From positions 1 through 37,749 of the forward strand of contig JBDRLS010000115.1 of NCBI GenBank assembly GCA_043812875.1: a DNA stretch of 37,749 nucleotides, given 5' to 3'. The position numbers and the translations under genes were made by a program. The notes beneath the pieces were generated by a model. That model was not told where the DNA came from. It saw only the letters and a program-made list of their open reading frames with translations, and searched no databases. Of this stretch, positions 128 through 35,205 are shown piece by piece. How positions within the stretch are numbered: the first letter of the stretch is position 1; the number at the start of each line of letters is the position of its first letter. Source of the DNA: Nanobdellota archaeon. GTDB taxonomy: Archaea > Nanobdellota > Nanobdellia > Woesearchaeales > JAHIVG01.

Positions 128-160
128 CCAGGTTGAAAACCTGGTGAGATTTGACGATCA
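128..160 (+). repeat. tRNA-derived fragment: an anticodon-arm-like hairpin (CCAGG-TTGAAAA-CCTGG) plus 16 nt. It is a partial copy of 235-267 inside the downstream tRNA.
   Basis: 28 of the first 32 aligned positions match 235-266. Three of the four mismatches are in the loop (GAA versus GAU at anticodon positions). No acceptor, D or T arm surrounds it. Confidence 0.6.
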
Positions 161-206
161 TAAGTACTTTAGATGAAATAGTATTTATGTGTTTTCCTTG
201 GACAGA

Positions 207-318
207 GCCGTGGTGGCAGAATCTGGTGATTGCGCCAGGTTGATGCCCTGGTGAGGTTTGACGATCTCATGCGGGTTCGAATGAATCCAATGAGACTCCG
301 ATAATCCCGCCCGCGGCG
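207..318 (+). tRNA. tRNA-Ile(GAU)-like gene with two non-canonical insertions (putative introns)
   Basis: Acceptor GCCGTGG (207-213) pairs with CCGCGGC (311-317), including one G-U; discriminator G318. D arm is GCAG..TTGC. Anticodon arm is CCAGG-TTGATGC-CCTGG (235-251). T stem GCGGG (271-275)/CCCGC (306-310) has its T loop TTCGAA..T split by 23 nt (282-304). There are 19 nt (252-270) where a 4-5 nt variable loop is expected. Confidence 0.7.
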
Positions 319-396
319 CCCAAAAACCACCATATTTCACAGCAAAGGACACATCCCTTGCACAAACCATTTAAACCCCCCTCAGTTTTTATATTT

Positions 397-1011
397 ATGA
401 AAAACATCAAGGCCATCCTCTTTGACATGGACGGCGTTCTCATCGACACAGGCCCTTCTTGGTTCCATGTATTCAACCTGGCTCGCGTGCATTTCGGATT
501 CCCCGAAGTTGACCTCAAAGATTGGCAGGAGCGATGCTGGGGGCTCACCCTCCCTGCGATTAAGGACACCTTTTTTCCCGGCATAACTGAAGAGAGACTC
601 CTCAGCTCATTTGAATCCAAGATGCATCTTTACTTCAAGCACGCGCTGCCTATGCCCCATTCAGTGAATGTCATCAACCGCCTGAAGAAGAAGTTCAAGA
701 TTGCGGTCGTGACGAATGGCACAAAAAAGATGTCTGATCTGCTCCTTCCGAAACTTGGAATCACTTTCGACGCTGTGCTTACATCAGATGACGGTGCAGA
801 GAAACCCTCACCAGACCTGATTATCAAGGCCTGTGAACTCTTGCAGGTAGCTCCGAAAGATACTGTCATGATCGGTGACGTTCCCGTGGACATGGAGGCT
901 GCGAAGGCAGCTGGCTGCATAGGCATCGGTTTTGGTATTGACGGCGATTACAGAGTAGAAAGCTTTTTAGAGTTATTGAAACTATTAGGTGAACATCATG
1001 GACCCCTTTGA
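397..1011 (+). CDS. HAD-superfamily phosphatase/hydrolase
   Basis: DxDG motif FDMDGVLID at the N-terminus and a GDxxxD-type motif (MIGDVPVDMEAA) near the C-terminus. ATG 397 is preferred over the upstream in-frame extension; an AT-rich TATA-like stretch lies just upstream. Confidence 0.85.
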   Translation: MKNIKAILFDMDGVLIDTGPSWFHVFNLARVHFGFPEVDLKDWQERCWGLTLPAIKDTFFPGITEERLLSSFESKMHLYFKHALPMPHSVNVINRLKKKFKIAVVTNGTKKMSDLLLPKLGITFDAVLTSDDGAEKPSPDLIIKACELLQVAPKDTVMIGDVPVDMEAAKAAGCIGIGFGIDGDYRVESFLELLKLLGEHHGPL

Positions 1012-2371
1012 TGCCATAAGCCCGATAGATTTCAGGTATGCCAACGAAAAGCTGAAGCCTCTCAGCGAGAATGCATTCATCAGTTATCTCGCCAAAGTGG
1101 AGCTGGCGCTCGTCGAGACTTTGGCTGATTACAAGATCTGTTCGCGCGAGGCAGTCGAACAAGTCAAGCAGGCAGTGGAAAAAGTCACTGCGAAAGAGGT
1201 CTATGAGGAAGAGCACCGGATAAAGCACAATATCCGCGCATTGGTCAATGTCATCCGGAAGAATGTCAGCGACGAGGTAAAGCCATATGTGCATTTCACT
1301 GCAACAAGCCATGACATCATCTGCACAGCCGATGCCTATCGTTATAAGCTTGCGGCAAAGGAGCTTGTCGTGCCATCACTTCTCGCGCTTGAGAAGGAAC
1401 TCATGCGCCTCACCCTTCAAGAGAAGGACGCTCTCCAGATCGGGAGGACGCATGGCCAGCACGCCGAGCCTATCACTGTGGGATTTGCCTTTGCCGAATA
1501 TGTTTCCCGGCTCGGGCAGCGCATCACTAAGGTGAAAGCTGCAGCTGAGGATCTCCGAGGGAAGATAGCTGGCGCTGTCGGTGCCTATAATGCGGCATCA
1601 TTGTTCTTTGACGAGCCTGAGGTGTTCGAGAGGGCAGTGCTGACCAAACTCGGGCTGAAGCCGAGCACTCACTCCACACAAGTCGTTGAACCAGAGTTTA
1701 CAGTGGATTTTGTCCACAGCCTTGTCTCGGCATTCGGGGTGCTCGCCAATCTTGCAGATGATCTCCGGCATCTGCAGCGCTCAGAGATAGCAGAAGTTGC
1801 TGAGTCATTCGGCTCAGCGCAGGTTGGCTCATCGACCATGCCGCATAAGCGCAACCCCATCAGCTTTGAAAACGTCAAATCCCTCTGGAAGGAGTTCGTG
1901 CCGAGGATGCAAACATTATATATGGATCAGATTACAGAGCACCAGCGTGATTTGACCAATTCTGCATCCATGCGTTTCGTCCCCGAGATCATCGCCGCAT
2001 TGGTGATAGCTGCTGATCGTCTCACTTCAACGTTAAGCAGATTGATCGTGGACCATAAGCAGCTCTCCAAGAACTTTTCCATGAGCAAAGACCTTATCCC
2101 TGCAGAGCCATTGTATATTGTCTTGGCAGCCCATAACCATCCAGATGCTCACGAAAAGGTGAGGGAACTTGCACAGGCATCCAGGGATTCCAACAAGTCG
2201 TTTATTCAGCTGGTGAAGGCTGATCCTGGCCTGAGACCATACCTCAAGAAGTTCACCAAAAAGCAATTGGCGGCAATAGAACATCCTGAACTTTATACCG
2301 GAAAGGCCTCGGAAAAAGCTGAAAAAGTGGTGACATACTGGAAGAAACGCCTGCTTCTCACTCTTGATTGA
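998..2371 (+). CDS. purB: Adenylosuccinate lyase
   Basis: Fumarate-lyase superfamily signature GSSTMPHKRNP and a PurB-like N-terminus SPIDFRY. An AGGTGA ribosome-binding-like site lies 8 nt before ATG 998; the ORF opens with GTG at 989. Confidence 0.9.
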   Translation: MDPFDAISPIDFRYANEKLKPLSENAFISYLAKVELALVETLADYKICSREAVEQVKQAVEKVTAKEVYEEEHRIKHNIRALVNVIRKNVSDEVKPYVHFTATSHDIICTADAYRYKLAAKELVVPSLLALEKELMRLTLQEKDALQIGRTHGQHAEPITVGFAFAEYVSRLGQRITKVKAAAEDLRGKIAGAVGAYNAASLFFDEPEVFERAVLTKLGLKPSTHSTQVVEPEFTVDFVHSLVSAFGVLANLADDLRHLQRSEIAEVAESFGSAQVGSSTMPHKRNPISFENVKSLWKEFVPRMQTLYMDQITEHQRDLTNSASMRFVPEIIAALVIAADRLTSTLSRLIVDHKQLSKNFSMSKDLIPAEPLYIVLAAHNHPDAHEKVRELAQASRDSNKSFIQLVKADPGLRPYLKKFTKKQLAAIEHPELYTGKASEKAEKVVTYWKKRLLLTLD

Positions 2372-2708
2372 GCGGCTTGACGATCAGGTACCACACACTG
2401 CCGGTGATGAGGATGGATGAGAGGATGAAGAGCAATGGATTGTCCATCTTCTGGTTGTTCGCGGATTCAAGGGTATAATAAAGGCTTTTGCATTGGACGA
2501 CATCAGTACAGAAGCTCTTTTCATCGAGTGTGCAGCAGACTTCCTTCTCTTCGCAATCTGAGGCTGCCTGGCACATCGCGCTATCTTCAGCAATATCTTC
2601 GACAATGGCATATCCAGTGGCAGTCAAATGATTTGACCGGATGAAGAACAGCGTTAAGGAGACTACGATGAACACAGCTAACATCTGTGTGGCTATTGCG
2701 TATTTCAT
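2358..2708 (-). CDS. Small Cys-rich membrane-anchored protein (N-terminal signal/anchor, C-terminal TM helix), function unknown
   Basis: Hydrophobic N- and C-terminal segments flank the Cys-rich core CQAASDCEEKEVCC..C..C. A consensus GCTTTATATAC box has its first T 30 nt upstream of the ATG at 2708. Confidence 0.7.
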   Translation of the reverse strand: MKYAIATQMLAVFIVVSLTLFFIRSNHLTATGYAIVEDIAEDSAMCQAASDCEEKEVCCTLDEKSFCTDVVQCKSLYYTLESANNQKMDNPLLFILSSILITGSVWYLIVKPLNQE

Positions 2709-2747
2709 GGGATAATCAGCACGCGGGAAGTATATAAAGCTTTCCGT

Positions 2748-3368
2748 TCACCAGCTCAAGGTCACTTCAGCCCCTTTTGAAAGCGCTAGCTTATGTCTGA
2801 CATGTTCCGGAGCGATGAATTCAATGATCTCTTTGGCATGAGAGGTTCTCTCCGGAAAGATCAATGCTCCCCTGATATCCTCGAGCCATGCTGCTTTGCC
2901 ATATACCGGACCGAATGTCCTCCCATTTTTTGTAAATCCTTTAACTTCCTTCATGACCTGCCCGGCGAGGAATGCCCGGAGCTTGTCTGGATTAACCTTG
3001 ATGTTTAATGTCCCCAGATAAGGGATGAAGGAAAACGCTTCCGAGAGGGATTCCTTGTAGTGCCCCATATAATATTTCCCTTCCCCTAAGCCGGTTACGA
3101 TCCTGCCTTTGAGCGTGCTGTTTTTTAAAAATAGGGATGCAAGCTTCTCGAATTCCTCCCTGAGCCCAGCCATGCCTTTCTCAGTGAGTTTAGCGGTGAA
3201 GCCTGCCGGGCTGGTTGTGAGAGTGATCAAGCCGGCGCTCTTGAGATCACCTAGTATCCTCGAGGCGGATTGCTGGGACATATTCAGTTTCTTGGCGAGC
3301 AAGCCGGTAGTGGACTCATATTCCTTAGAAAGCCCCTTGCTGGCAAGCTCCTGGAGCATCGGTTGCAT
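2748..3368 (-). CDS. ribK: Winged-HTH domain fused to CTP-dependent riboflavin kinase (RbkR-like bifunctional regulator/kinase)
   Basis: The C-terminal half carries archaeal RibK motifs (GLGEGKYY, YLGTLNIKV, PERTSH). The N-terminal ~70 aa look like a wHTH (LAKKLNMSQQSASRILGDLKSAGLI). A TATA box sits 30 nt before the ATG. Confidence 0.85.
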   Translation of the reverse strand: MQPMLQELASKGLSKEYESTTGLLAKKLNMSQQSASRILGDLKSAGLITLTTSPAGFTAKLTEKGMAGLREEFEKLASLFLKNSTLKGRIVTGLGEGKYYMGHYKESLSEAFSFIPYLGTLNIKVNPDKLRAFLAGQVMKEVKGFTKNGRTFGPVYGKAAWLEDIRGALIFPERTSHAKEIIEFIAPEHVRHKLALSKGAEVTLSW

Positions 3369-3403
3369 TACTTAAAAGAGAGTAGCATATTATATAAAGT
3401 TTG

Positions 3404-3805: not shown

Positions 3806-3822
3806 GTTGATGTTAGGTCAAC
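3806..3822. promoter_or_regulatory. Operator-like palindrome GTTGAT-GTTAG-GTCAAC between the TATA box and the start codon of the wHTH gene
   Basis: 6-bp inverted arms with a 5-bp spacer. The only other copy of this architecture in the window is at 7308-7324, in the grpE leader. Confidence 0.55.
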
Positions 3823-3949
3823 ACAGCTTTTTAATGGTTTCCATCCTCCAGGTCTCATTTCTATTCTCAAGTAGGGAAAAGTTTAAATATCAAAACGTAT
3901 ATCAGTATACAAAAAAGGTAAACAATTAGAAAATGAGGAGGAATGCCCA

Positions 3950-13298: not shown

Positions 13299-13331
13299 AA
13301 ACTAATAAAGGGGAACAGTTCTAGCTAAGCT

Positions 13332-14063
13332 ATGACCCACATCACATTCGAAAGCGGCGGCCTAAAACTCCAGGGCATACTCTCCGGACCGAAGCAGGAC
13401 ACCACGAAATGTGTCATCATCGCCCACGGCTTCATGTCCAGCAAGGAGTTCGTGCATTGGCGGCATCTCTCTGATGCCCTCAATAAAGAAGGCATCGCCT
13501 GCTTCCGTTTTGATTTCAGGGGCCACGGCAAGAGCGACAAGGCGGAGATTACTGTCTCTGGAGAAGTGGAAGACCTCCGCGCCGCGATGGCATTCATCAG
13601 GACAAAAGGATACACGTCCATCGGCCTATTCGGCTCCAGCCTCGGCGGCTTGATCTGTTTCCTCTGCTATGATAGCGGAATAAACACCATGGCATTCTTG
13701 GCTCCGGTCTCTAAGCCGAAGAACCCCGGGATCATCAATGAAGACATCCTTACGACCCTGAAAGACAAGGGATCGCTCGAGATCAAGAAGAAAGACGGCA
13801 GAAAGGTCGTCATCAATGAGCAATATGTCCGAGAACGCCAATCCTTCGACCGAGAACAGCTCCTGAAATCGATATCCTGTCCAATCCTCATCAATCACGG
13901 CACTGCAGATACGGTCCTCCCTGTCCAGGATTCAGTGGAAGCGATGACCTTCCTCAATGCAGAGAGCTCATTAAACATTGTTGAAGGTGCAGACCACACA
14001 TTTAGAGGTCACGGCAATGAACTTATTGAGAAATCTCTTTCTTGGTTCCAGCGTTTTTTATAA
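13332..14063 (+). CDS. Alpha/beta-fold hydrolase
   Basis: Nucleophile elbow GSSLGG (GxSxG), IIAHGF near the N-terminus and GADH near the C-terminus. TATA-like CTAATAAA lies about 29 nt before the ATG. Confidence 0.8.
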   Translation: MTHITFESGGLKLQGILSGPKQDTTKCVIIAHGFMSSKEFVHWRHLSDALNKEGIACFRFDFRGHGKSDKAEITVSGEVEDLRAAMAFIRTKGYTSIGLFGSSLGGLICFLCYDSGINTMAFLAPVSKPKNPGIINEDILTTLKDKGSLEIKKKDGRKVVINEQYVRERQSFDREQLLKSISCPILINHGTADTVLPVQDSVEAMTFLNAESSLNIVEGADHTFRGHGNELIEKSLSWFQRFL

Positions 14064-18369: not shown

Positions 18370-19308
18370 ATGCATCTCTTATCATTAGCCGATTGGAAAT
18401 CTGAACAGATCCTGGACATCATCGATGATTCGCTCGAGATCAAGAAGCATCCGGACAAGTACAAGGACTCGATGAAGGACAAGACCTTGCTCATGATCTT
18501 TGAGAAACCAAGTCTTAGGACGAGACTGAGTTTTGAAGCAGGCATGACCCAGATGGGCGGCCATGGAATCTTTTACAGTGTCAAGGATTCGCCGCTCGGC
18601 AAGAAGGAGACCATGCATGACACAGCGAAGACCGCATCAAGATATGTTGACATCATCATGGCACGGCTGAACAAATACAAGGACACCGAAGAGCTTGCCA
18701 TGCACAGCGACGTGCCGGTTATCGACGCGTTGAGTGATGAAGCGCATCCCTGCCAGATCATTGCTGATCTGCAGACGATAAAAGAAAAAAAGGGCAAGCT
18801 TAAAGGCCTCAAGCTTTGCTATCTTGGTGATGCCAACAACAATGTCACCTATTCCATGATGCATGGCACTGCGCTCATGGGCATGGACATGACCATCGGC
18901 TGTCCAAATCATAAAAACCTCATGCCCGACTCCCGATTCATCGAAGAAGCCAAGAAGATTGCAGAGAAAACAGGTGCCTCGCTCACAATATACCATGATG
19001 CGAAGGAAGCGATCACCGACGCTGATGTTGTGTACACAGACTCGTGGATGTCATACCACATATCCTCTGATGAGGAGGCTGAGCGCAAGAGGTTGCTCCT
19101 GCCGTTCCAAGTCGATGGCGCCCTCATGAAGCATGCGCATCCTGAGGCGATCTTCATGAACTGCCTCCCGGCAATAAGGGGATATGAGCAGACCGCGGAA
19201 GTGATCGACGGCCCTCAGAGCGTCGTCTTCGACCAAGCCGAGAACAGATTACACGCTCAGAAAGCGATTATGTTGTATTTATTGAAACATAAATCAGCGA
19301 ATCCGTGA
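18370..19308 (+). CDS. argF: Ornithine-carbamoyltransferase-family transcarbamylase (divergent active-site motifs)
   Basis: FEKPSLRTRLSFE, HPCQ and VVFDQAENRLHAQKAIM match the OTC/ATC fold. However STRTR is SLRTR here, DxxxSMG is DSWMSYH, and HCLP is NCLP. Confidence 0.8.
   Translation: MHLLSLADWKSEQILDIIDDSLEIKKHPDKYKDSMKDKTLLMIFEKPSLRTRLSFEAGMTQMGGHGIFYSVKDSPLGKKETMHDTAKTASRYVDIIMARLNKYKDTEELAMHSDVPVIDALSDEAHPCQIIADLQTIKEKKGKLKGLKLCYLGDANNNVTYSMMHGTALMGMDMTIGCPNHKNLMPDSRFIEEAKKIAEKTGASLTIYHDAKEAITDADVVYTDSWMSYHISSDEEAERKRLLLPFQVDGALMKHAHPEAIFMNCLPAIRGYEQTAEVIDGPQSVVFDQAENRLHAQKAIMLYLLKHKSANP
19255..19286 (+). repeat. 32-nt perfect direct repeat, copy 1 (within the last codons of argF)
   Basis: gctcagaaagcgattatgttgtatttattgaa is identical to 19381-19412. 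Confidence 0.95.
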
Positions 19309-19380
19309 CCATCAATTTACGTGTGGGTCACGGCGTTGGACTGTAAGTCCCACCTTCCCGCTCGAGCCTGAAAAGGGTCG

Positions 19381-19412
19381 GCTCAGAAAGCGATTATGTT
19401 GTATTTATTGAA
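19381..19412 (+). repeat. 32-nt perfect direct repeat, copy 2 (preserves an alternative argF C-terminus AQKAIMLYLLKNK-stop)
   Basis: Identical to 19255-19286. It is followed in the equivalent frame by aag aac aaa tga. Confidence 0.95.
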
Positions 19413-19467: not shown

Positions 19468-20706
19468 ATGAACACCCTAAAACCGAAAACCGCGACTTAT
19501 GAAGCACATCCAGGAGAGGTCAAAAAAGTGGTGCTGCTCTTCTCTGGAGGTTTAGACACCAGCATCATCCTCAAATGGATCAATATCCATTACAATGCAG
19601 AGGTCATCACGCTCACATTGGACCTCGGCCAGCCAGGCATCGATCTTGTCGATGTCAAGAAGAAAGCGCTCGCATTAGGTGCTGTCAAGGCTATTGTCGT
19701 CGACGCCAAAGAGGAGTTTGCAGAGCATTACATTGCTAAAGCGATCAAGGCGAATGCCCTCTACCAAGGACAATACCCTCTCTCGACCACCATCGGCCGG
19801 CCGCTCATATGCAAATATGCAGTAAAGGTCGCGGAAGAGGAAGGATGCGACGCTGTCGCCCACGGCTCCACAGGGAAAGGCAATGACCAAGTCCGCCTCG
19901 ACGCGGGCATCATCACCTTGAATCCGAAACTCAAGGTCCTCGCTCCGGTGCGCGATTATGATCTCACCCGAGATGTCGAAGCTGATTTCGCGAAAAAGCA
20001 TGGCATCCCCATCGCCCATCATAAGGTCTCGCAATATTCGACTGATGAGAACCTTTGGGGGAGGAGCATCGAATGCGGCATATTAGAGCATCCTGAGGAG
20101 CCGTTTCCAGATGATATCTTCACCCTCACGACAATCCCTGAAAAAGCTCCAGATATACCGGACATCATCTCCCTCCAGTTTGAGCACGGCGTTCCCGTCG
20201 GCATGAACAATGTTCCCATGATGCTCCATGTCCTAGTCGACAACCTCAACAAGATAGCAGGGAAACACGGAGTCGGCATCATCGACATGGTTGAAGACCG
20301 GGTTGTCGGCCTTAAGTCGAGGGAGATCTATGAATGCCCTGCTGCGATAACCATCATCAATGCGCACAAGGACTTGGAGAAGTTCACCTCGACCATCCAT
20401 CAGAACAGCGTGAAGCCGTTCATCGACCAGAGATGGAGCGAGATGGCATATTACGGCTTGTGGAATGATCCATTGATGGACTCGCTCAACGCGTTCATAG
20501 ACACTATGAACAGCCAGGTGACCGGCGAGGTGAAGGTAAAATTATTTAAGGGAGCAGCCATACCTACTTCCCGTTCATCAAAGAACGCCATCTACGACCA
20601 TCAGCTCGCGTCCTACACAAAAGGCCAGACCTTCAACCAGGCTGCCTCTCCGGGATTCATCGAGCTGTGGAGTTTACAGACAAAGATGGCGAACCAGAGG
20701 GGGTGA
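19468..20706 (+). CDS. argG: Argininosuccinate synthase
   Basis: PP-loop motif FSGGLDTS and a typical length. GAGGAG lies before the ATG. Confidence 0.95.
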   Translation: MNTLKPKTATYEAHPGEVKKVVLLFSGGLDTSIILKWINIHYNAEVITLTLDLGQPGIDLVDVKKKALALGAVKAIVVDAKEEFAEHYIAKAIKANALYQGQYPLSTTIGRPLICKYAVKVAEEEGCDAVAHGSTGKGNDQVRLDAGIITLNPKLKVLAPVRDYDLTRDVEADFAKKHGIPIAHHKVSQYSTDENLWGRSIECGILEHPEEPFPDDIFTLTTIPEKAPDIPDIISLQFEHGVPVGMNNVPMMLHVLVDNLNKIAGKHGVGIIDMVEDRVVGLKSREIYECPAAITIINAHKDLEKFTSTIHQNSVKPFIDQRWSEMAYYGLWNDPLMDSLNAFIDTMNSQVTGEVKVKLFKGAAIPTSRSSKNAIYDHQLASYTKGQTFNQAASPGFIELWSLQTKMANQRG

Positions 20707-22981: not shown

Positions 22982-23115
22982 AGCGGGGTAGGGCAGCCAG
23001 GAGACACCAAAAAGTGCCTAAATGCCCGGAGGGCTCATAAACTCGTTGCGCTGTTAACCTCAGGCGCAAAGTCCGAGGAACCCTCAGGTCGGAGGTTCAA
23101 ATCCTCTCCCCGCTA
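22982..23115 (+). tRNA. Initiator tRNA-Met(CAU) with a canonical 37/38 intron (~40 nt) and an extra ~18-20 nt inside the D loop
   Basis: Acceptor AGCGGGG/CCCCGCT gives an A1:U72 pair, with discriminator A. Anticodon stem GAGGG/CCCTC has three G-C pairs next to the loop CTCATA|A. The T arm GGAGG-TTCAAAT-CCTCT is intact. D stem GGGC (22991-94)/GCCC (23024-27) encloses 29 nt. A T8 run follows. Confidence 0.8.
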
Positions 23116-23144
23116 TTTTTTTTACCACTGGACATTCTCACGTG

Positions 23145-23158
23145 AGCTTTATAAAAAA
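23145..23158 (+). promoter_or_regulatory. BRE/TATA promoter of the LAGLIDADG-like ORF (AGCTTTATAAAAAA)
   Basis: The first T of TTTATA (23148) is 32 nt before ATG 23180. Confidence 0.55.
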
Positions 23159-23179
23159 GAATAGAGCACATTAGCCACA

Positions 23180-23737
23180 ATGACTCTACCAAAAATAAAT
23201 ATCAAAGAACTGATTAAAGGAAACAAAACTTATCCAACGTGGTCTACTGGTTCTTGTCACCAGTTATACGCTACCAATGAAAAACAAAATACGATAAAAA
23301 TATTCTACACTACAAAATCAAAACGTATAATATCCCGTGTATTTCCAAAAAAGTTAACTTTATCTCCTGAATTTTGCTATGTATTGGGCTTTCTCAAGGG
23401 AGAAGGATCGAACTCACTCGGAAAATCAAATTACCGAAGATTCACTATAACAAAGTCTGATCCAGATATAATGAAATTTGTTCTTAAAATTCTTGAGAAA
23501 AATAAACTTCTATCTCTATCAAGATTAATAAATAAATCCTGTCATTTAATTCATTTCAAATTGACAGAAAAAAAAGTAATAGAATATTGGTCTGAGAAAT
23601 TAAAGTTGCCTGAAGAAAAATTTAAATGCTTTGAGGATAAGAATAAGACATCGCTTTTTGGAGTCTGTCATATTTATATCAGTGATGTTCTTTTAAGAAG
23701 AGTTGTGGATCTTATTCAAGAGAAAATCATGAGTTGA
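23180..23737 (+). CDS. Single-motif LAGLIDADG-like homing-endonuclease-family protein
   Basis: SPEFCYVLGFLKGEGSNS resembles the LAGLIDADG motif context (compare I-CreI EFLLYLAGFVDGDGS). The 185-aa size fits homodimeric members. The DNA is strongly AT-rich relative to the flanks. Confidence 0.55.
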   Translation: MTLPKINIKELIKGNKTYPTWSTGSCHQLYATNEKQNTIKIFYTTKSKRIISRVFPKKLTLSPEFCYVLGFLKGEGSNSLGKSNYRRFTITKSDPDIMKFVLKILEKNKLLSLSRLINKSCHLIHFKLTEKKVIEYWSEKLKLPEEKFKCFEDKNKTSLFGVCHIYISDVLLRRVVDLIQEKIMS

Positions 23738-23744
23738 TTTACCT

Positions 23745-23772
23745 TCTCCCCGCTATCTTCCCAATTTTTTCT
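23745..23772 (+). repeat. Direct repeat: last 11 nt of the initiator tRNA plus 17 nt of flank (tctccccgctatcttcccaattttttct)
   Basis: 28/28 identical to 26025-26052. It overlaps the last codons of the minus-strand antiporter gene. Confidence 0.9.
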
Positions 23773-25489
23773 TCCCTTTCACTCTCTTCTGCAGCGCCAA
23801 TAAATGTTTCCGTGGAATACCTCTGATCATGGAAAAGCCGCGAAAGAGCTGAATTGCCATCAATCCTAAAAAGAGCAATTCAAGATAGTTAAATGCGGGA
23901 TCAAGATTAGAGAGCAGCACAAAATTGGGCAGCATGACCGCAAAAACATAGAGGAGGATCGCCTGCCCGAAGGTTTTTAGAATGCCCTTCTCCTGGTCAA
24001 GGTCATAAGGAAGGAAGATGCGGATGAAGCTGCGAAAATGAGCAATGAAGTTCCTGAATGCCCGCACGATATCAAAGCCGATGAAGGCCAGGATGACAAG
24101 TATGAGCATGGCCAAAGTCAACAGTGTCTTCGGTTGGCGCAAAAAGAGCTGCTGCTCAGGAGATAACCACAGCCAGATATACCCTGCGAGGGCGATGAGT
24201 GCCAGAAATCCACCGACCCCGCGAAAGAAGCGTCGCAGATCATTCTTCAAGGTCAATGTCTGCTTTCGTGAATATTCGAGATTGTCATGGATGACACACA
24301 TGTATCTTGACCCTAACCTGATCGGCTTGAGCATCCAATCAGGCATGCATCCCATGCAAAAATTTCCAAAGGCTTCATAGCGCGTGACCGCGAGAGGAGT
24401 GATCAAGGTGGAGAGGAAGATCACTGCAGCCACCATGCTCACCAAGTCAAATCCTGGATTGAGAGGATCTGCAATGGCGACGACGAGCAGCGAAAACTCC
24501 CCTATCGGGACCATGGCCAAGCCGGCGAACGCCGCCTGCTTCCCGGATAAGCCTCCGAAGAGATATCCGCCTGTGCTGATGGCAAAGCTCTTGGCAATGA
24601 CTGTGAACACAAAGAATGCCAGGATGATCGGCCACATGGTGATAACCGTGTTGAAGTCGACGAGCGTCCCAAGGGAAAAGAAGAACAACGACGAAAACGT
24701 CAAGACGAAAGGATGGATGGCATGTTCAATGCTTTTTGCTGCAGGAAGCGATGCGATCAGCGTACCTGCAAGAAAGGCGCCTACAGATGAGGATATACCA
24801 AGTACTGTCGCCAGATAGCTCATTCCGACTAGCAATCCCAATCCGAGAAACATTGAAGTCTCTTCTGAACTGTAGGCTAAGATCCAATTGATGGCCCATC
24901 GCAGAACACGTTTCAGCACCACATAGGTGATGATCAGCACCAGGAATGCTGCAAGCAAGGGAGAGAGCAGATCACCGGGCGTTCCTTGCACACTGGAAAA
25001 ATAGGTAAGAGCGAACACGCCGAAGATATCCTCGATGATGAGCACCGCGATCAAAAGCTGAACCTCATTACGATCGACGAGCCCTTTAGCCTTTAGGATC
25101 CGGATCATGATGACCGTGCTTGAGATCGCTAGAGCAACGCCGAGAGCAAGAGACGAGATCACGTCAAAGCCCAGCAAGAGCGCAAGATAATAGCCGGCAA
25201 ACACCACTAAACCAAGCTTGAAGATGGCCATCATCAATGCTTTCCCGCCCAAATTCAGTAATTTCTGGATATTGAACTCGATGCCGATGGCGAATAAGAG
25301 CAGGATTGCCCCGATCTCAATGGCCAGGTGGATCAACTCACCGTCGCTGATGTAGCTGAGCGCATTCGGACCGACGATGGCTCCGATGAGCAGTAATCCG
25401 ATTGCCGTGGGTTGTCTGAATCGGGTTGCGAGGAGCCCTCCGAGTAGGGAGAATCCGAAAATCAGACCGATCTCGACCCCGGCGACCAT
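23753..25489 (-). CDS. Cation:proton antiporter (CPA2/Kef-type Na+/K+:H+ exchanger) with extra C-terminal TM helices
   Basis: 578 aa and polytopic. The N-terminus EIGLIFGFSLLGGLLATRFRQPTAIGLLLIGAIVGPNAL is typical of CPA transporters. GCTTTTTATATCC lies about 27 nt before the ATG. Confidence 0.85.
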   Translation of the reverse strand: MVAGVEIGLIFGFSLLGGLLATRFRQPTAIGLLLIGAIVGPNALSYISDGELIHLAIEIGAILLLFAIGIEFNIQKLLNLGGKALMMAIFKLGLVVFAGYYLALLLGFDVISSLALGVALAISSTVIMIRILKAKGLVDRNEVQLLIAVLIIEDIFGVFALTYFSSVQGTPGDLLSPLLAAFLVLIITYVVLKRVLRWAINWILAYSSEETSMFLGLGLLVGMSYLATVLGISSSVGAFLAGTLIASLPAAKSIEHAIHPFVLTFSSLFFFSLGTLVDFNTVITMWPIILAFFVFTVIAKSFAISTGGYLFGGLSGKQAAFAGLAMVPIGEFSLLVVAIADPLNPGFDLVSMVAAVIFLSTLITPLAVTRYEAFGNFCMGCMPDWMLKPIRLGSRYMCVIHDNLEYSRKQTLTLKNDLRRFFRGVGGFLALIALAGYIWLWLSPEQQLFLRQPKTLLTLAMLILVILAFIGFDIVRAFRNFIAHFRSFIRIFLPYDLDQEKGILKTFGQAILLYVFAVMLPNFVLLSNLDPAFNYLELLFLGLMAIQLFRGFSMIRGIPRKHLLALQKRVKGKKKLGR

Positions 25490-25551
25490 GGCTCAATTGT
25501 CTTTTGAGGATATAAAAAGCTTCCGTTCTACTCCCAGACCCTGACAATCCC

Positions 25552-25575
25552 CTTCCCAATTTTTCTCTAAAAATT
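25552..25575 (+). repeat. Direct repeat cttcccaatttttctctaaaaatt
   Basis: Matches 26037-26061 apart from one T of the T run. Its first 15-16 nt also match 23757-23772. Confidence 0.85.
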
Positions 25576-25604
25576 TATAAACCAGCATTCATTCCCCCTT
25601 TCAT

Positions 25605-25961
25605 ATGGTAGCAGATCATGGACCTCCTTGGTATCGAATTGTATCTGTCAGACCGGACAGAAATTGGCAAGGAGAAGGAAGCCGAGGATATATGAACCAG
25701 GTTTGGCACCGATCCTCTACACCAGGAAATGACACTTCTGATTTTAATATCTCTATGATCGGTGGAGAGCCAATTGGACAGGAAATTTATCTTTTTCATG
25801 TTGACCAGAAAGAACTTGGCGATAGAAATATAAACGATCTTCTCGGCTTGCGTGTAACGGTTAGTGGAAGATCTGGCGAGAGGAGATTACTCCCAGCAGA
25901 TGGAAGTAGTCCCATCCCCTATACTAAGTACTTACAAGCTTCAGTTCAAGAGATGGAATGA
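25605..25961 (+). CDS. Hypothetical protein (118 aa) in the third cassette
   Basis: AAATTTATAAACC has its first T (25574) 31 nt before ATG 25605. No motif recognised. Confidence 0.5.
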   Translation: MVADHGPPWYRIVSVRPDRNWQGEGSRGYMNQVWHRSSTPGNDTSDFNISMIGGEPIGQEIYLFHVDQKELGDRNINDLLGLRVTVSGRSGERRLLPADGSSPIPYTKYLQASVQEME

Positions 25962-26017
25962 ACGCGATAGTTCCTTCTGTCTTGAGGCCGTCTCGAACCT
26001 ACGGGAATCCTAGAAAG

Positions 26018-26061
26018 CAAATCCTCTCCCCGCTATCTTCCCAATTTTTTCTCTAAAAATT
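26018..26061 (+). repeat. Partial initiator-tRNA 3' end (18 nt) plus flank; reads like an unoccupied copy of the insertion site
   Basis: caaatcctctccccgcta matches 23098-23115. The next 17 nt match 23756-23772, and the last 25 nt match 25552-25575. Confidence 0.9.
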
Positions 26062-27364: not shown

Positions 27365-27551
27365 TTCCGACCCACGACCGGGTGATCTTGTCCGAACAAG
27401 GAAAAGCGAGACCGCGGTCCATAATCTTGCAGGTCCACAGCGTCGTGATACTGAAAGTCCCGCTTCTTGGTGTCCTTAGAGCTCTGCTCTTAGCTACGAA
27501 CTTTAGTGAGTTTGCTAGCCTTTGTAAAGGCTAGGTGGAGGTGGCCGGGCC
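27365..27551. ncRNA. Candidate structured RNA or decayed RNA gene in an unusually GC-rich intergenic region (identity unknown)
   Basis: No ORF is present. Perfect hairpins at 27515-27534 (CTAGCCTTT/AAAGGCTAG) and 27387-27400 (CTTGT/ACAAG). The 7-bp pairing 27406-27412/27457-27463 has an A-C mismatch on the + strand that becomes G-U on the minus strand. Confidence 0.25.
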
Positions 27552-27592
27552 AATAATAACATTTAAATAAAGTGTTCGTGAAAGAAGAGACC

Positions 27593-28237
27593 ATGAGAAT
27601 ACTCATTGCGGCCATGCTTCTTTTTCTCACTGGCTGCATTGGATCCTCTACCGTGCTTGATCAATTGGAATCCTCCTTGGATTCCTTCAATGCTTGTGAG
27701 GGCATACCTTCTGTAGAAGAGTCGTGCAAAGATTCGGTAGAGCAAGACAAATGTTCATCGGTGTTCTCGTATATCAGCGAAAGAAGGCAGGGAATGTGTA
27801 ATGAGGAAAATATTGTGCGTGGCCTCATCCAAGATGACCGAGGCGGGTCCTTCGAACAAGTGAATGAGGCAAACGAACGATTCCATTACTATGCAACGCT
27901 CTGGGTCTTTGAGCTGGCAGGATTTGGCATGGCCTCAAAAACAGGTACAGATGACCTAAAGGAAATTGAGTTACAAGCGATCAAAGAAAACTTTGAATCC
28001 CTTTCCGACAAAGGGCTTCCACCCCAAACACGTGAGAAATATGACCGCCTTGCAAGATCAGTGTCTTTCACAGATGAGGATGGATCGCATCTCCTTTCTG
28101 TGATCATGGAGAGATGTGAGCAAGAGAAAAGCGAACTTCAAAAGGCCATCGAGGAAGATGATAATTTTAAAATGGCCTATACGTCTGGCTTCTTGAAATC
28201 TTGCACAGACTTTCTAAATCCGCCCCCGGCAAAATAG
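27593..28237 (+). CDS. Lipoprotein-like secreted protein, function unknown
   Basis: MRILIAAMLLFLTGC is a lipobox-type signal. TTTAAATAA has its first T (27562) 31 nt before ATG 27593; the ORF opens with GTG at 27572. Confidence 0.7.
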   Translation: MRILIAAMLLFLTGCIGSSTVLDQLESSLDSFNACEGIPSVEESCKDSVEQDKCSSVFSYISERRQGMCNEENIVRGLIQDDRGGSFEQVNEANERFHYYATLWVFELAGFGMASKTGTDDLKEIELQAIKENFESLSDKGLPPQTREKYDRLARSVSFTDEDGSHLLSVIMERCEQEKSELQKAIEEDDNFKMAYTSGFLKSCTDFLNPPPAK

Positions 28238-30846: not shown

Positions 30847-30916
30847 AAATTGCCCTTTCCGCAACATTTATATATACCTTTCCAGTTAGAAGAGCTATCA
30901 AAATAGGGGTGATTAT

Positions 30917-31258: not shown

Positions 31259-31262
31259 AGTC

Positions 31263-31285
31263 TTTTTTTTCTTTTTTATTTTCCT
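31263..31285 (+). terminator. Oligo-T terminator candidate
   Basis: tttttttt c tttttt a tttt lies immediately after the stop codon at 31258. Confidence 0.5.
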
Positions 31286-31364
31286 CATACAAAACCTTTA
31301 TATATACCCCGACAGTTATAGCAGGTAGTCAGTCTACTTTTCAGAGACGACAAAAGAGGAGACA

Positions 31365-34300
31365 ATGACACGTATTTTGCGCATGGTTATGTCCGGCTTC
31401 AAGAGTTTTGCCCTTAAGACAGAGCTCATTTTCGGAGAGGAATTCAACGTCATTCTCGGCCCGAACGGTTCCGGCAAGTCAAACGTCTTGGATGCGCTCT
31501 GCTTTGTCCTCGGGAAAGGCTCTTCCAAGGAGATGAGGGCAGAGCGTGCTGCCAACTTGATCTACAATGGCGGAAAGAAGAAGGAGCCGGCGAAACAAGG
31601 GGAAGTTTCCATATTTTTCGACAATTCAGAGAAGACGTTCCCCACCGAAGAACCGTTTGTCAAGATCACCCGGATTGTGAAACCGACTGGGCAATCGACA
31701 TACAAGATAAATGACAAGACAAGGACACGACAGCAGATCCTCGAGCTTCTCGCCATCGCCAAGATCAATCCTGATGGGTATAACATCATTCTCCAAGGCG
31801 ATATCGTACGCTTCGTCGAGATGTCAACAGACCAAAGAAGGATGGTCATAGAAGAGATTGCAGGAATCTCGATGTATGAGGAGAAGAAAAACAGGGCACT
31901 GAGAGAGCTTGAAAGGGTTGAGGGGAGGATCAATGAGGCTGATATCGTCCTCAAAGAGCGGAAGACCTATATCGATGAGCTGCAGAAGGAGCGAGACCAG
32001 GCGATGAAGTTCAAGGATGCAGGCACTAAGATCAAGCAGAACAAGGCATCCTTGCTCCATTATCAAACTGAGGAAAAGCAGAAAGAGCTCAAGGAAAAAG
32101 ATGCATTGACTTCCTCAAGGAAGAAAGATATCGATAAAATCCAGGCAGAGATCACAAAGCTCAAGAAGCAGGTCGAAGGAAAACAGGGCGTCATCAAGGG
32201 ACTCAATGATCAGGTGGAGCAGCAGGGCGAGAAGGAACAGGTCAAGGTCCATAAGGAGATTGAGCAGTTCAAGGTCGATATCGCCACCAACAAGACAAGG
32301 ATAGGATCATGTGAGAATGAATTGCAGAGAATCAACCAGCGCAATGACCAACTGCATAAGAGCTTGGCAGATGTCGAGGAAAAGATTGCCCGCCTCGAGA
32401 AGGAGAAGACCGAACTTGCCCAACAGGAAAGCTCGAACAAGAAAGATCAATCTATTGTGGATCAGAAGATAGCAAAATTCCGGACCGATGCCAATCTCGA
32501 CAAGGCAGGGGACATTGAGCAAGACATAGAGAAGCTCGATAACCTGGCTGAGGAGAAGCAAAAAGAGATCCAGGACCTTAGGGAGCGGCAGCAGGAGCTG
32601 ATGCGGGAGAAAGACCGCCTTGAATACCAGCTCCAATCTGTCGATGAAAAGATTGAGAAGGTCATGAATGTTGCAGCTGAGCAGAAAGAGGAGCTTGCCA
32701 GGCTCAAGGAGATGAAGCAAGACTTCAAGAGGACCACCTTACGGTTGAACACCCTTCTGAATGAGGATTCCTCCCTTGCCGCCCAGCTGGCAAACGCGAG
32801 GACGAAACTCCAGGCTGCGAACGAAGATATTGCAAAGCTGCAGGCACAGCAAGCCTCACTCAGGGAAAAAATATCCTTGGGGACTGCTGTCCAGAAGATC
32901 ATTGAAAGCAAGAGCAAGTTTCCCGGCATCGAGGGCACGGTATCAGAGCTCGGCCGGGTCAAGAGCGAGTATGCCATGGCCCTTGATGTTTCCGCTGGAG
33001 CAAGGATAAAGAGCATCGTTGTCGATAATGAAGATACCGCATCCAGATGCATCCGCTATCTGAAGCAGAACCGATTTGGCGTCGCATCATTCCTCCCCCT
33101 CAACAGGGTAAAAGCAGAGCCTGCAAAGCCCTTCCCCCATGCAGGGGCAAAAGGGGTCATCGGCAGGGCGATCGACCTCATCAATTTTGATGCGAAGTAT
33201 AACCGGGTCTTCAACTATGTCTTCGCCAACACCATCGTCGTCGAAACAATTGACGTCGCCAGAAGACTGGGAATAGGGCGATATCGCATGGTGACCTTAG
33301 AGGGGGATCTCTGTGAGATCTCCGGAGCGATGCACGGCGGCTTCCGGAGAAAGGAGAGCCATACGGGCTTCCAGCAGAAAGAAGTTGGTGCAAACATCGC
33401 AAAGTATGAGGAAAAGGCCGCTGACTTGGAAGGGGTCGTCTCCCATCTCGAGATCAAGCGCAAGGGCTCAGATGAGGAGATCACCAAGCTACGCCAGGAC
33501 AAGGCCATGATGGAAGGGGAAATCATCAAATTAGAGAAGAGCCTCCATCTTGAAGAAGGTGACCTGGATGCCAATAAGATATTGAAGAAAGAGCTCAGCG
33601 AGAAGGCAATGGGATCTGACAAGGCGCTGATGGAACTCCAGAATAAGATAGGGGCGGTAAATAAAGAGCTTGCCGCCTTGAAGATGAAGAAGAATGATCT
33701 CAGGAGCACGATCACTGAGTTGAGGAATCCGGCAAAGCTCGCAGAGCTTAATACGTTTGAGCAGAAACGGACCGAGCTGAAGGAGCAGCTCATCAGCATC
33801 CAGGGAGAGATGAAGAACATCACCTCGCAGATCGTCTCAATCCTCAATCCTGAGAAAGAGAATATTGCGAAAATCCTGAAACAGCAGGATAAAGAGGAGA
33901 CCCGGTTCGCTTCTGAAATAAAGGACCTTCAGGCAAGGATCAAGACACAAAGCGCTGAACTGGTGAAGAAAGAAAAGGATGAGAAAGTGTTCTATAACCA
34001 ATTCAAGGAACTGTTCACTAAACGCAACACTGCTTCCGATGAGATGCAGAAGCTCGAGACGAGGATCATCAAGAAAGAGGAAGAGATCAGGAGTTCAGAG
34101 CACAGGATGAACGCGATATCATTAGACATCGCCCGCCTCAGGGCAGAGATGGCAGGCATCGAGCATGAGGCAAAGCAGTATGAAGGAGTGAAGATAGTCA
34201 ACAAACCGATTGAGCAGCTGAAGAAAGAAATCAGCAATGCTGAACGCATGGTGACAGGCATGGGCAATGTCAACATGAAAGCATTGGAGATCTATGAGAC

Positions 34301-34850
34301 TGTTGAGAGGGAATACACTGAATTGCATAAGAAGAAAGAGCGTCTCTCCGAAGAGAAAGAGGATGTCATGGTCATGATGAACGAGATCGAGACCAAGAAG
34401 AAGGATCTGTTCATGAAGACTTTTGACCAGATCCAGGAGCATTTCCAGCGCATCTTCAGCACGTTGACGACCAAGGGGAGTGCAGAGCTTGTCTTGGAAG
34501 ACCCTGATACAGTGTTTGAAGGCGGCGTGAGGATACGTGTCAAGATCACCGGGAGGAAGTTCCTCGATATCAGGTCATTGTCCGGTGGCGAGAAGACGCT
34601 TACTGCGCTCGCGTTTATCTTCTCAATTCAAGAATACGATCCTGCTTCATTCTATGTCCTCGACGAGGTTGACGCCGCACTTGATAAGAGGAATTCTGTC
34701 AGATTGGCTGAGCTTGTGAAGCAGTATGCAGACAAGGCGCAGTACATCATGATCAGCCACAATGACAACATCATCGCTGAAGCCAATATCCTCTACGGCG
34801 CCTCCATGAACGAGCACGGCATGACCAAGGTCGTGAGCCTGAAAGTTTAG
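31365..34850 (+). CDS. smc: Chromosome segregation ATPase SMC
   Basis: Walker A GPNGSGKSN, long coiled coils, a hinge (GVASFLPLN), the signature motif LSGGEKTLTALAF and Walker B FYVLDEVDAALD. Confidence 0.95.
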   Translation: MTRILRMVMSGFKSFALKTELIFGEEFNVILGPNGSGKSNVLDALCFVLGKGSSKEMRAERAANLIYNGGKKKEPAKQGEVSIFFDNSEKTFPTEEPFVKITRIVKPTGQSTYKINDKTRTRQQILELLAIAKINPDGYNIILQGDIVRFVEMSTDQRRMVIEEIAGISMYEEKKNRALRELERVEGRINEADIVLKERKTYIDELQKERDQAMKFKDAGTKIKQNKASLLHYQTEEKQKELKEKDALTSSRKKDIDKIQAEITKLKKQVEGKQGVIKGLNDQVEQQGEKEQVKVHKEIEQFKVDIATNKTRIGSCENELQRINQRNDQLHKSLADVEEKIARLEKEKTELAQQESSNKKDQSIVDQKIAKFRTDANLDKAGDIEQDIEKLDNLAEEKQKEIQDLRERQQELMREKDRLEYQLQSVDEKIEKVMNVAAEQKEELARLKEMKQDFKRTTLRLNTLLNEDSSLAAQLANARTKLQAANEDIAKLQAQQASLREKISLGTAVQKIIESKSKFPGIEGTVSELGRVKSEYAMALDVSAGARIKSIVVDNEDTASRCIRYLKQNRFGVASFLPLNRVKAEPAKPFPHAGAKGVIGRAIDLINFDAKYNRVFNYVFANTIVVETIDVARRLGIGRYRMVTLEGDLCEISGAMHGGFRRKESHTGFQQKEVGANIAKYEEKAADLEGVVSHLEIKRKGSDEEITKLRQDKAMMEGEIIKLEKSLHLEEGDLDANKILKKELSEKAMGSDKALMELQNKIGAVNKELAALKMKKNDLRSTITELRNPAKLAELNTFEQKRTELKEQLISIQGEMKNITSQIVSILNPEKENIAKILKQQDKEETRFASEIKDLQARIKTQSAELVKKEKDEKVFYNQFKELFTKRNTASDEMQKLETRIIKKEEEIRSSEHRMNAISLDIARLRAEMAGIEHEAKQYEGVKIVNKPIEQLKKEISNAERMVTGMGNVNMKALEIYETVEREYTELHKKKERLSEEKEDVMVMMNEIETKKKDLFMKTFDQIQEHFQRIFSTLTTKGSAELVLEDPDTVFEGGVRIRVKITGRKFLDIRSLSGGEKTLTALAFIFSIQEYDPASFYVLDEVDAALDKRNSVRLAELVKQYADKAQYIMISHNDNIIAEANILYGASMNEHGMTKVVSLKV

Positions 34851-34866
34851 AAAACCTTTATAAATG
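34851..34866 (+). promoter_or_regulatory. BRE/TATA promoter (AAAACCTTTATAAATG) driving the tRNA-Glu locus
   Basis: The first T of TTTATA (34857) is 32 nt before 34889, the first base of the duplicated tRNA 5' segment. Confidence 0.6.
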
Positions 34867-34888
34867 GATTCTGGTTGCCTTTTCGTAC

Positions 34889-34902
34889 GCCCCGTTGGTG
34901 TA
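34889..34902 (+). repeat. Exact copy of tRNA-Glu positions 1-14 (GCCCCGTTGGTGTA), 97 nt upstream of the tRNA body
   Basis: Identical to 34986-34999 and located at the predicted transcription start. Confidence 0.9.
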
Positions 34903-34985
34903 CCCACGGCCATCTTTTTTCCTCCCTCGCGGTTGGCAAAAAGCTGGACCAAAAAACAGATGTGCGGGTTTCCTGCGGTGTTAAT

Positions 34986-35205
34986 GCCCCGTTGGTGTAG
35001 TCCGGCCAATCATACGGCCCTCTCGACACGAGAAATCCAAGATTTCGTCGGCGAAAGGCCGTGACTCGGGTTCGAACAGCTTTTTCATCCTCGCGGATGA
35101 AAAACCTGGGAAAACAGTTGAACGACCCTGAAGTTCCTCAAGGTCAAGAGGGGTATCTATGATACCCCAGGAATCCCAGAAGCGTCGAAAGTCCCGGACG
35201 GGGCA
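34986..35205 (+). tRNA. tRNA-Glu(CUC) with a canonical 37/38 intron (30 nt) and a 115-nt intron in the T loop (59/60)
   Basis: Acceptor GCCCCGT/ACGGGGC with discriminator A. The D arm GTGT-AGTCCGGCCAA-TCAT is typical of archaeal tRNA-Glu. Anticodon stem CGGCC (35015-19)/GGCCG (35057-61) carries the loop CTCTCG|A. T stem TCGGG (35066-70)/CCCGG (35193-97) has its loop TTCGAA..T split by 35077-35191. A T run follows. Confidence 0.8.

Follow-up and report, generated by a model that had tools for sequence, protein, structure and literature searches.

The DNA considered here is a stretch of 37,749 nucleotides (nt), contig JBDRLS010000115.1 of the assembly GCA_043812875.1, which as a whole is called the window below. 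It carries three tRNA genes, the argF-argG gene pair, and several gene cassettes, and at four places within it a piece of sequence is repeated directly at a distance. These direct repeats, and a family of small structured non-coding elements found between some of them, are the subject of this text. The window is contig C115 of a metagenome-assembled genome (MAG, here G000) of 150 contigs and 1.495 Mb, with 47% G+C and 93% completeness. Judged from sequence, its source organism is a DPANN archaeon: the best matches of argF are MAG genes labelled Nanoarchaeota, Woesearchaeota, Micrarchaeota, and Iainarchaeum. The nearest compared genomes, G001 (argF 73% identical) and G002 (68%), are members of the same family but of different genera. 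For the window, ARAGORN and Rfam (in both gathering and E-value modes) reported zero tRNAs. After manual removal of two introns per gene, the three window tRNAs fold as canonical cloverleaves in ARAGORN, and it was the presence of two introns in each that caused the genes to be missed. Genome-wide, only 18 tRNAs lie above the Rfam threshold, and disrupted tRNA genes are therefore the rule in G000; the remaining ones are probably mostly multi-intron genes overlooked by standard finders. The features of the window are as follows.

128-159, plus strand: orphan tRNA-Ile-like fragment (anticodon arm, variable region, start of intron 1)
207-318, plus strand: tRNA-Ile(GAU) with introns 257-270 and 283-305; the spliced form is a cloverleaf (ARAGORN)
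18370-19308, plus strand: argF open reading frame (ORF), with the left copy of a 32-nt duplication, 19255-19286, inside its 3' end
19287-19380, plus strand: non-coding element of 94 nt with three hairpins, belonging to an order-wide family and truncated at its 5' end
19381-19412, plus strand: right copy of the 32-nt duplication, continuing as …LLKNK*
19468-20706: argG, following the right argF repeat
22982-23115, plus strand: initiator tRNA-Met(CAU) with introns 23005-23023 and 23041-23080
23105-23116 and 23745-23756: 12-nt duplication of cassette X1, TCTCCCCGCTAT
23117-23744, plus strand: cassette X1 (youngest), with its own promoter and an ORF of 185 amino acids (aa) without Pfam match
23757-23772 and 25552-25566: 16-nt duplication of cassette X2, CTTCCCAATTTTTTCT, the second copy one T shorter
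23773-25551, minus strand: cassette X2, with a Na+/H+ exchanger gene (23753-25489, minus strand)
25576-26017, plus strand: cassette X3 (oldest), with a TATA box and a 118-aa ORF
26018-26061: intact right copy of the 44-nt duplication of X3 (tail of the tRNA gene and 25 nt of flanking DNA), the left copy being split by X1 and X2
27515-27535, minus strand: lone copy of the terminal palindrome of the element family (CCTAGCCTTTACAAAGGCTAG), 18.6 bits, model positions 65-85
34853-34868, plus strand: predicted B recognition element (BRE)/TATA promoter (AAAACCTTTATAAATG); the tRNA-Glu locus has no other
34889-34902, plus strand: left 14-nt copy (tRNA-Glu positions 1-14), at the predicted transcription start
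34903-34985, plus strand: 83-nt insert containing a T7 run
34986-35205, plus strand: tRNA-Glu(CUC) with an intron at the canonical position (35027-35056) and a 115-nt T-loop intron (35077-35191)

An earlier note on this DNA had described four sets of direct repeats, and all of them are present. At tRNA-Ile, 128-159 and 235-266 are identical at 28 of 32 positions (offset 107); at argF, 19255-19286 equals 19381-19412 (32/32, offset 126); and at tRNA-Glu, GCCCCGTTGGTGTA occurs at 34889-34902 and 34986-34999 (14/14, offset 97). The tail of the initiator tRNA gene recurs as 19 nt at 23098 and 26018, as 28 nt at 23745 and 26025, as 12 nt (the X1 duplication sequence) at 23105, 23745, and 26025, and as about 24 nt, with one indel, at 25552 and 26037. 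A genome-wide scan showed that the frequency of such repeats is far above chance. Exact direct repeats of at least 16 nt within 3 kb number 72 in the 1.495 Mb, against about 2.7 expected from order-3 Markov genomes; for 14-mer direct repeats, 62 were seen and about 23 are expected from the same model. Among window pairs separated by 40-300 nt, only those at tRNA-Ile and argF reach 28/32, and none did in 20 order-2 Markov shuffles. The tRNA-Glu 14-mer is not significant by length alone but is significant by position, because it starts at tRNA +1, lies at start distance from the only TATA box, and has an exact parallel in G063. When pairs of at least 14 nt were kept only if their flanks are unrelated on both sides, a filter that drops paralogues and coding repeats, 93 of 153 pairs passed, about 20 of them at least 18 nt long. 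Repeats at other contigs of G000 include the following.

C118: 44-nt repeat, offset 114
C38: 26-32-nt repeats in three copies
C92: 16-nt repeat, offset 128
C19, 7780-8093: 232-nt non-coding insert with many GTGACA motifs, 41-nt repeat
C49, 2651-3290: 0.6-kb toxin-antitoxin-like two-gene cassette, 21-nt exact repeat (about 35 nt with two mismatches)
C84, 6776-7496: 0.7-kb cassette at a gene start, 21-nt repeat
C83, 8689-8790: 60-nt insert, 21-nt repeat

The duplications in G000 measure 10, 12, 14, 16, 16, 21, 26, 32, 32, 41, 44, and 44 nt. Several of the repeats lie mostly in non-conserved flank, which at C118 makes up 30 of the 44 nt. The proposal of recurrent insertion thus holds insofar as the pattern recurs beyond chance, but the four window loci do not represent one kind of event.

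At argF, the reading frame now continues from the left duplication copy into the insert (…LLKHKSANP*), and the …LLKNK* that follows from the right copy is the presumed original end of the gene. The last hairpin of the insert reaches into the right repeat, whose first 4 nt complete it. A common architecture was found for this insert and for copies on C38 (two in tandem after tRNA-Val(GAC)), C142 (after tRNA-Val(UAC)), C30, and C118: hairpin 1 with a large loop, hairpin 2 with usually a CUGYAAG loop, a UUYUUUGG spacer, and a terminal palindrome, CCTAGCCTTT-N2-3-AAAGGCTAGG. A covariance model built from four element copies independently recovered three further ones, namely the argF insert, an insert on C92 (35 bits), which was then found to be flanked by the 16-nt repeat, and a copy on C65 adjoining tRNA-His; the C118 insert between the 44-nt repeats, with its similar three hairpins, was undetected by the model. 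The argF insert matches covariance model R1, built without the argF copy, at 19300-19383 with 28.2 bits (E=2e-4 genome-wide), and in a further search with the family model it reached E=1.9e-5. With blastn of each insert against the genome a second copy was not found, and the elements are therefore not a high-identity repeat family. According to the covariance model, 36 out of 151 genomes from the order contain the family, one genome having at most 12 copies, and what had been suspected to be a genome-specific phenomenon is instead found across the order. Besides the argF copy, members adjoin genes for tRNA, a candidate C/D sRNA, RNase P RNA, and proteins, with direct repeats of the surrounding sequence measuring 9-44 nt on either side. 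In an alignment of 58 matches, of which 55 rows are distinct, pairing in the three helices reaches 94%; it is 70% when columns are shuffled and about 45% when partners are slid. Pairing is favoured in these values since the alignment was fitted to the model. Compensatory changes occur in 20 of the 21 helix pairs.

In Rfam 15 no family matches the element, either in the window or at 21 loci; above threshold, these loci gave only the neighbouring tRNAs and one RNase P RNA, and weak, below-threshold snoRNA-like matches adjoin two of them. Identification of the element as a C/D-box, H/ACA, signal recognition particle (SRP), or RNase P RNA was rejected by eye and with Rfam. The hairpin 2 loops (CUGYAAG) were also considered as anticodon arms of tRNA-Tyr or tRNA-Cys and rejected, as a normal tRNA-Cys exists and the copies are without acceptor and T arms. 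The RNase P match is genuine: at locus L149 of G095 (323-690, minus strand) an archaeal RNase P RNA (120 bits) was observed with the three-hairpin module of the family immediately 5' of GAGGAAAGUCC, at the expected site of helix P3. A further observation concerns the window itself, where the minus strand of 27370-27560 holds a promoter-preceded non-coding stretch of about 190 nt that begins GGCCCGGCCACC and contains, close to its 5' end, the terminal palindrome of the family; it lies between a radical-SAM gene and the ORF 27572-28237 and has no Rfam match.

Copies of the element are of two sorts. Full-length ones, in G075, G100, G058, G121, G112, and G071, contain the module within units of 300-350 nt that possess their own TATA box and further hairpins; their closing helix of 10-17 bp is copy-specific in sequence, with complementarity kept. 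Some lineages add a 5' module to the three-hairpin core. Short copies in G000 are flanked by repeats of local sequence of 16, 26, 32, and 10 nt, and comparable copies occur in other genomes.

G002, L136: 13-nt repeat at the tRNA-His 3' end; the same arrangement, decayed, is on C65 of G000
G073, L132: 24-nt repeat at the 5' end of a weakly snoRNA-like, C/D-box-type small RNA (sRNA) candidate
G096, L150: 29-nt repeat at a protein gene 3' end
G147, L156: 26-nt repeat, tandem units
G063, L159: 14-nt repeat of the first 14 nt of a tRNA, as at the window tRNA-Glu

The gap between the terminal palindrome and the right-hand repeat is 0-6 nt in the majority of short copies; at C118, G063, and argF, 12-17 nt stand between the hairpin foot and the repeat. 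The palindrome end is fixed and the opposite end is trimmed variably, giving elements of 60 to about 210 nt. At argF, C92, and G002 the repeat itself provides the final 2-4 nt of the palindrome stem, an overlap that would be expected for joining at microhomology. Elements are found in both orientations relative to their targets, which are unrelated to one another: tRNA-Val, tRNA-His, tRNA 5' ends, the C/D sRNA candidate, protein 3' ends, and intergenic DNA. On C38, an older insertion duplicated 26 nt and a younger one 32 nt, and the older insert's first base may be part of the latter duplication; the repeats there are 100% identical and the elements between them about 45% diverged.

The second locus connected with this family is that of tRNA-Glu. 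Over its first ~50 nt, the 83-nt insert shows homology with the initial ~45 nt of this tRNA's T-loop intron (local alignment score 44, against a mean of 17 and a maximum of 30 in 300 shuffles). The T-loop intron is in turn homologous over about 100 nt to two G002 sequences, the 5' module of the element flanking tRNA-His (score 63, shuffle maximum 31, 0/300) and the DNA that immediately follows tRNA-Val(GAC) (score 55, shuffle maximum 39, 0/300). Removal of this intron, 35077-35191, together with the other one restores the tRNA-Glu(CUC) cloverleaf. In G073 (L133) the module was seen by eye, on the opposite strand, at the canonical 37/38 intron position of tRNA-Arg(UCG), flanked at this one locus by a 4-bp CUUC/GAAG helix with 3-nt bulges, also read by eye. 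The homology of insert and intron to the G002 element indicates that the argF and tRNA-Glu loci involve one element family, which also supplies introns. The idea of mobile-intron activity, raised in the earlier note, is borne out to the extent that the family of the argF insert and tRNA-Glu spacer also occurs as tRNA introns, in tRNA-Glu here and in the tRNA-Arg of G073. As a separate observation on tRNA disruption, at locus L182 of G002 (G002:C21, ~13312-13700) a complete tRNA-Val(UAC) is nested within another tRNA gene, between the D arm and the anticodon arm of the host tRNA, i.e., a tRNA within a tRNA intron, and it is bracketed by the complementary stretches of about 14 nt GCAAAGAAATGTGA and TCACATTTCTTGCG.

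The repeats at the initiator tRNA are three nested insertions. Serial deletion of 23117-23756 (X1 and 12 nt), of 23773-25566 (X2 and 16 nt), and of X3 with 44 nt leaves exactly the sequence of 26018-26061. The inserts here are gene cassettes of 0.4-1.8 kb, and the description of short insertions at all four loci does not apply to them. No integrase is among the cargo of X1, X2, and X3. The 12-nt duplication abuts the 16-nt one without overlap, and the three events therefore took place without a common recombination core. The same footprint as at the initiator tRNA was found for the two-gene cassette on C49 and the cassette on C84. As gene cassettes share it with the elements, the footprint is a property of the insertion process and not of any one cargo.

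The tRNA-Ile locus is of a different nature. What had been taken for an insert, the 74 nt between the copies, holds the tRNA's own promoter and 5' part, and the arrangement is therefore not a simple insertion. The anticodon loop of the fragment at 128-159 is mutated to GAA, which makes a Phe-type anticodon in an Ile body. It is suggested that tRNA-Ile fragments would be scattered by recombination or by patch repair between copies. Elsewhere in G000, at C85 2170-2290, lies a 5'-truncated tRNA-Ile(GAU) with the same two introns that starts about 20 nt after a TATA box; this copy is either a pseudogene or the 3' piece of a split tRNA.

Comparison with relatives, a check outlined in the earlier note, revealed empty sites at argF-argG in one genus and at tRNA-Val(GAC) in two. 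In G002, the argF stop lies 10 nt before the argG start, with no insert; in G001, the argF-argG spacer is unrelated and 270 nt long. At tRNA-Val(GAC), G001 and G006 have neither an element nor a duplicated 3' end downstream. The insertion at tRNA-His is common to G000 and G002 and is therefore older than the split of these genera. For the tRNA-Ile and tRNA-Glu neighbourhoods, synteny is not conserved in G001 or G002. Within the G001 spacer (L082 2430-2690) a motif some 50 nt long, CATGTCCCC(G)ACTCGCT…CCGCCC, is repeated; it has no relation to the element.

Which enzymes might be responsible was considered mainly through protein domains in 12 element-bearing genomes. Cas1 (PF01867) was found in 0/12, the same search being positive in 7/14 control genomes, and the TnpB domain in 0/12. 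The reverse transcriptase domain RVT_1 (PF00078) is absent from G000, G002, G075, G058, and G100, of which G075 and G058 are the highest-copy genomes, and it is not enriched, as it occurs in 10 of the 36 genomes with the element and in 32 of all 151. No element or palindrome stands beside the genes for stand-alone Y1 transposases. With variable duplications of 10-44 nt, no Cas1, and no transposase or integrase within the inserts, the view that they differ from insertion sequences (IS), MITEs (miniature inverted-repeat transposable elements), and casposons was upheld.

The long repeats are very probably real insertions with target duplication. As a fuller account it is proposed, with a slight leaning in its favour, that insertion with target duplication would proceed by break repair or template switching and that intron-like mobile elements would be a frequent cargo; a repair or template-switch mechanism specifically is a tentative choice, on the doubtful side. 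In this scheme, serial insertion of DNA at gene ends would leave the long direct repeats as target duplications, and the cargo would be either small structured non-coding elements or promoter-bearing single-gene cassettes. An insert at the 5' or 3' end of a tRNA gene would become a leader or trailer and hence persist, one within the tRNA could be removed by splicing, and at the 3' end of a protein gene the duplication would leave a near-intact terminus. Two routes are envisaged. In one, copy-choice synthesis would switch template into a donor and return at the hairpin; in the other, a long staggered break would be filled in around captured DNA; in both, the stretch between the two joints would be copied twice. 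The fixed hairpin end, the variable other end, and the variable duplication argue against a ruler-type transposase or a site-specific integrase, and a copy-in process is favoured because the hairpin end is fixed, lengths vary, cargo is heterogeneous, and microhomology is occasionally present at junctions. The wider hypothesis, that transposase-free insertion (copy-choice or target-primed, stopping at a conserved hairpin) moves both elements and cassettes and is the source of non-canonical introns, tRNA fragments, and nested tRNAs, is rather unlikely to hold in full.

Several points weigh against the proposed insertion process. Microhomology was found at some junctions only. No donor identical to any insert was found in the genome by blastn, and the events are therefore old or the donors external. 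The empty sites all come from other genera, and a same-species argF was not found in the protein collection, where the best match is 73% identical. The tRNA-Ile locus, as stated, does not fit a simple insertion. The tRNA-Glu gene may be silenced, rather than left unharmed, because the T7 run of the insert stands between the only promoter read there and the gene. For the full-length copies no flanking direct repeats were seen, which bears on whether and how they move. Tyrosine recombinases are present in 10 of the 12 element-bearing genomes, and G000 has five; one recombinase gene is separated from the C142 tRNA cluster by about 0.6 kb, and another from the tRNA-Val of C38 by about 5.7 kb. A stand-alone Y1 (IS200-like) transposase is present in 9 of the 12. 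The regions concerned, C38 16877-18542 and C142 6343-6843, contain tyrosine-recombinase genes near element-carrying tRNA clusters, C38 also a Y1 transposase pseudogene, and may be integrated elements.

These recombinases are one ground for reading the repeats as left and right attachment sites (attL/attR), produced when plasmids, viruses, or trans-mobilised mini-elements were integrated by a tyrosine recombinase and later lost their interior. The 3' ends of tRNA genes are the classical att sites of archaea, and the newest insert adjoins the tRNA, as in tandem integration. However, no integrase lies in or beside any window insert, and for one family of 60-210 nt between unrelated repeats a pre-matched att would be needed for each copy. 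At the initiator tRNA no core is common to the 12-nt and the 16-nt duplication, repeats such as that of C118 consist mostly of non-conserved flank, and if internal stretches had been deleted at random, it would not be one and the same hairpin end that adjoins the repeat every time. Integration of this kind is thus considered improbable. It is quite improbable that the short copies are retro-copies, i.e., that an RNA with a hairpin-defined 3' end was reverse-transcribed at a nicked target. Such a process would explain the fixed hairpin end, the variable opposite end, and the variable duplication length, and the promoter-bearing full-length copies in G075 and other genomes could act as master genes, but RVT_1 is missing from G000, G002, G075, and G058 and shows the same lack of enrichment described above, the gene cassettes carry their own promoters, unlike transcripts, and the elements can face either way with respect to their targets.

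A function of the duplicated pieces, as parts of split or alternatively assembled tRNAs or as guide-like small-RNA segments, would be in keeping with the extreme disruption of tRNA genes (18 standard matches, the nested tRNA in G002), with left repeats placed exactly at promoter start distance (tRNA-Glu, C65), and with the complete identity of the C38 repeats despite the divergence of the elements between them. It is nevertheless very improbable: the repeats are in the same sense as their targets and not complementary to them, they cover protein-coding, promoter, and intergenic sequence, the tRNA-Ile fragment combines a Phe-type anticodon with an Ile body, tRNA-Val(GAC) of C38 and tRNA-Val(UAC) of C142 are complete without the extra copies, and partner 5' pieces were not found. 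Finally, the repeats could be chance matches or assembly artefacts, for example, concatenated strain variants. The genome is a MEGAHIT-type MAG, assembler footprints do occur in it at contig ends, the tandem identical 97-nt units of G147 could be artefactual, and the 14-mer alone lacks significance. Yet the repeat lengths of 12-44 nt do not follow k-mer sizes, independently assembled MAGs of other genera show this architecture too, with a homologous element, and none of it arises in shuffles, which makes this explanation scarcely credible. The assembler footprints are those at C29 6082-6251 and C86 1-170, where repeats with a 141-nt offset lie at contig ends inside a repetitive protein gene; they reflect de Bruijn assembly with k=141 and not biology.

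If target-duplicating insertion is set beside known systems, both similarities and differences appear. Non-canonical tRNA introns of Thermoproteales are translocatable (Fujishima et al., 2010, summarised in PMC4390854), and in a model for Caldiarchaeum the integration of mobile DNA can give rise to introns and disperse tRNA fragments (Sugahara et al., 2012, summarised in PMC4390854). As in those archaea, related sequences are present here both as introns, at various positions of tRNA genes, and outside introns in the DNA beside tRNA genes, tRNA fragments are scattered, and disruption is tied to inserted DNA. In contrast to them, the host belongs to DPANN, the elements form a defined multi-hairpin family of 60-350 nt with target duplications of 10-44 nt, they are also found at protein, candidate C/D sRNA, and RNase P RNA genes, and there is no recombinase-encoding 1.8-kb element here. 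With IS and MITEs the family shares its non-coding, multi-copy nature, the direct duplication of a local target, and, in the full-length core, a large imperfect palindrome; it differs by its variable duplication (fixed at 2-15 nt in IS/MITEs), the variable end of short copies, diverged copies with covarying stems and no conserved terminal inverted repeats, and the lack of a linked transposase. Casposons use a Cas1 integrase, leave a 14-15-bp duplication, and are often found at tRNA 3' ends, and the integration of CRISPR (clustered regularly interspaced short palindromic repeats) spacers duplicates a whole repeat. The long target duplication and the preference for tRNA 3' ends are comparable here, but Cas1 is missing from the 12 genomes, the duplication is not fixed, and the inserts are tiny non-coding elements or single genes.

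Fixed and truncated ends, variable duplication, promoter-bearing full-length copies, and proximity to small-RNA genes also recall retroposons without long terminal repeats (non-LTR) and short interspersed nuclear elements (SINEs), from which the present case is set apart by the lack of a reverse transcriptase in G000 and the highest-copy genomes and by promoter-bearing cassettes with the same footprint. The introner elements of algae are DNA transposons that create introns and co-opt the target duplication. The family resembles them in that a mobile non-coding element becomes an intron removed by host splicing; here, however, splicing would be of the archaeal endonuclease (bulge-helix-bulge) type, and a role of the duplication in the splice site is a feature of introners. 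Like repetitive extragenic palindromes and their paired forms (REP/REPIN), mobilised by the Y1-type REP-associated tyrosine transposase (RAYT), it consists of short palindrome-based modules at gene ends in genomes most of which (9/12) encode Y1; unlike in REP/REPIN, the Y1 genes are not flanked by elements, and to our knowledge REPINs leave no long duplications. A derivative of IS200/IS605 (palindrome-associated transposable element, PATE) or a TnpB guide RNA does not match what was found: TnpB was in none of the 12 genomes, and no element adjoins Y1_Tnp in the nine that have it. We are aware of no transposase or integrase in archaea with a footprint of 10-44-base duplications.

It is also worth recording that a conserved motif, CACTGGACAT-N4-6-CGTGAGC, is situated directly upstream of TATA boxes at 23126-23160 of the window and at least 10 other loci (C33, C37, C49 twice, C72, C110 twice, C117, C120, and C137), and is probably the binding site of a single transcription factor (regulon).

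The origin of non-canonical introns and of split and scattered tRNA genes in archaea has been debated for about 20 years, mostly through indirect comparisons of sequences. What is new here is an order-wide structured element in free, inserted, and intronic states, and long variable target duplications common to elements and gene cassettes. One family in three states, as promoter-bearing gene, duplicating insert, and tRNA intron, offers a testable path from mobile DNA to intron. The finding that standard finders miss most tRNA genes in such genomes means that annotations and completeness estimates likely undercount tRNAs. Long variable duplications at gene cassettes suggest an insertion or repair process undescribed in archaea, which could shape gene gain in DPANN archaea, whose genomes are very small. 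Transposase-free insertion, if true, would mean a new mobile-element class in archaea as well as a mechanism of intron gain that can be observed. The insertions may show how tRNA genes gain introns and become fragmented, which is relevant to research on archaeal mobile elements and on tRNA evolution.

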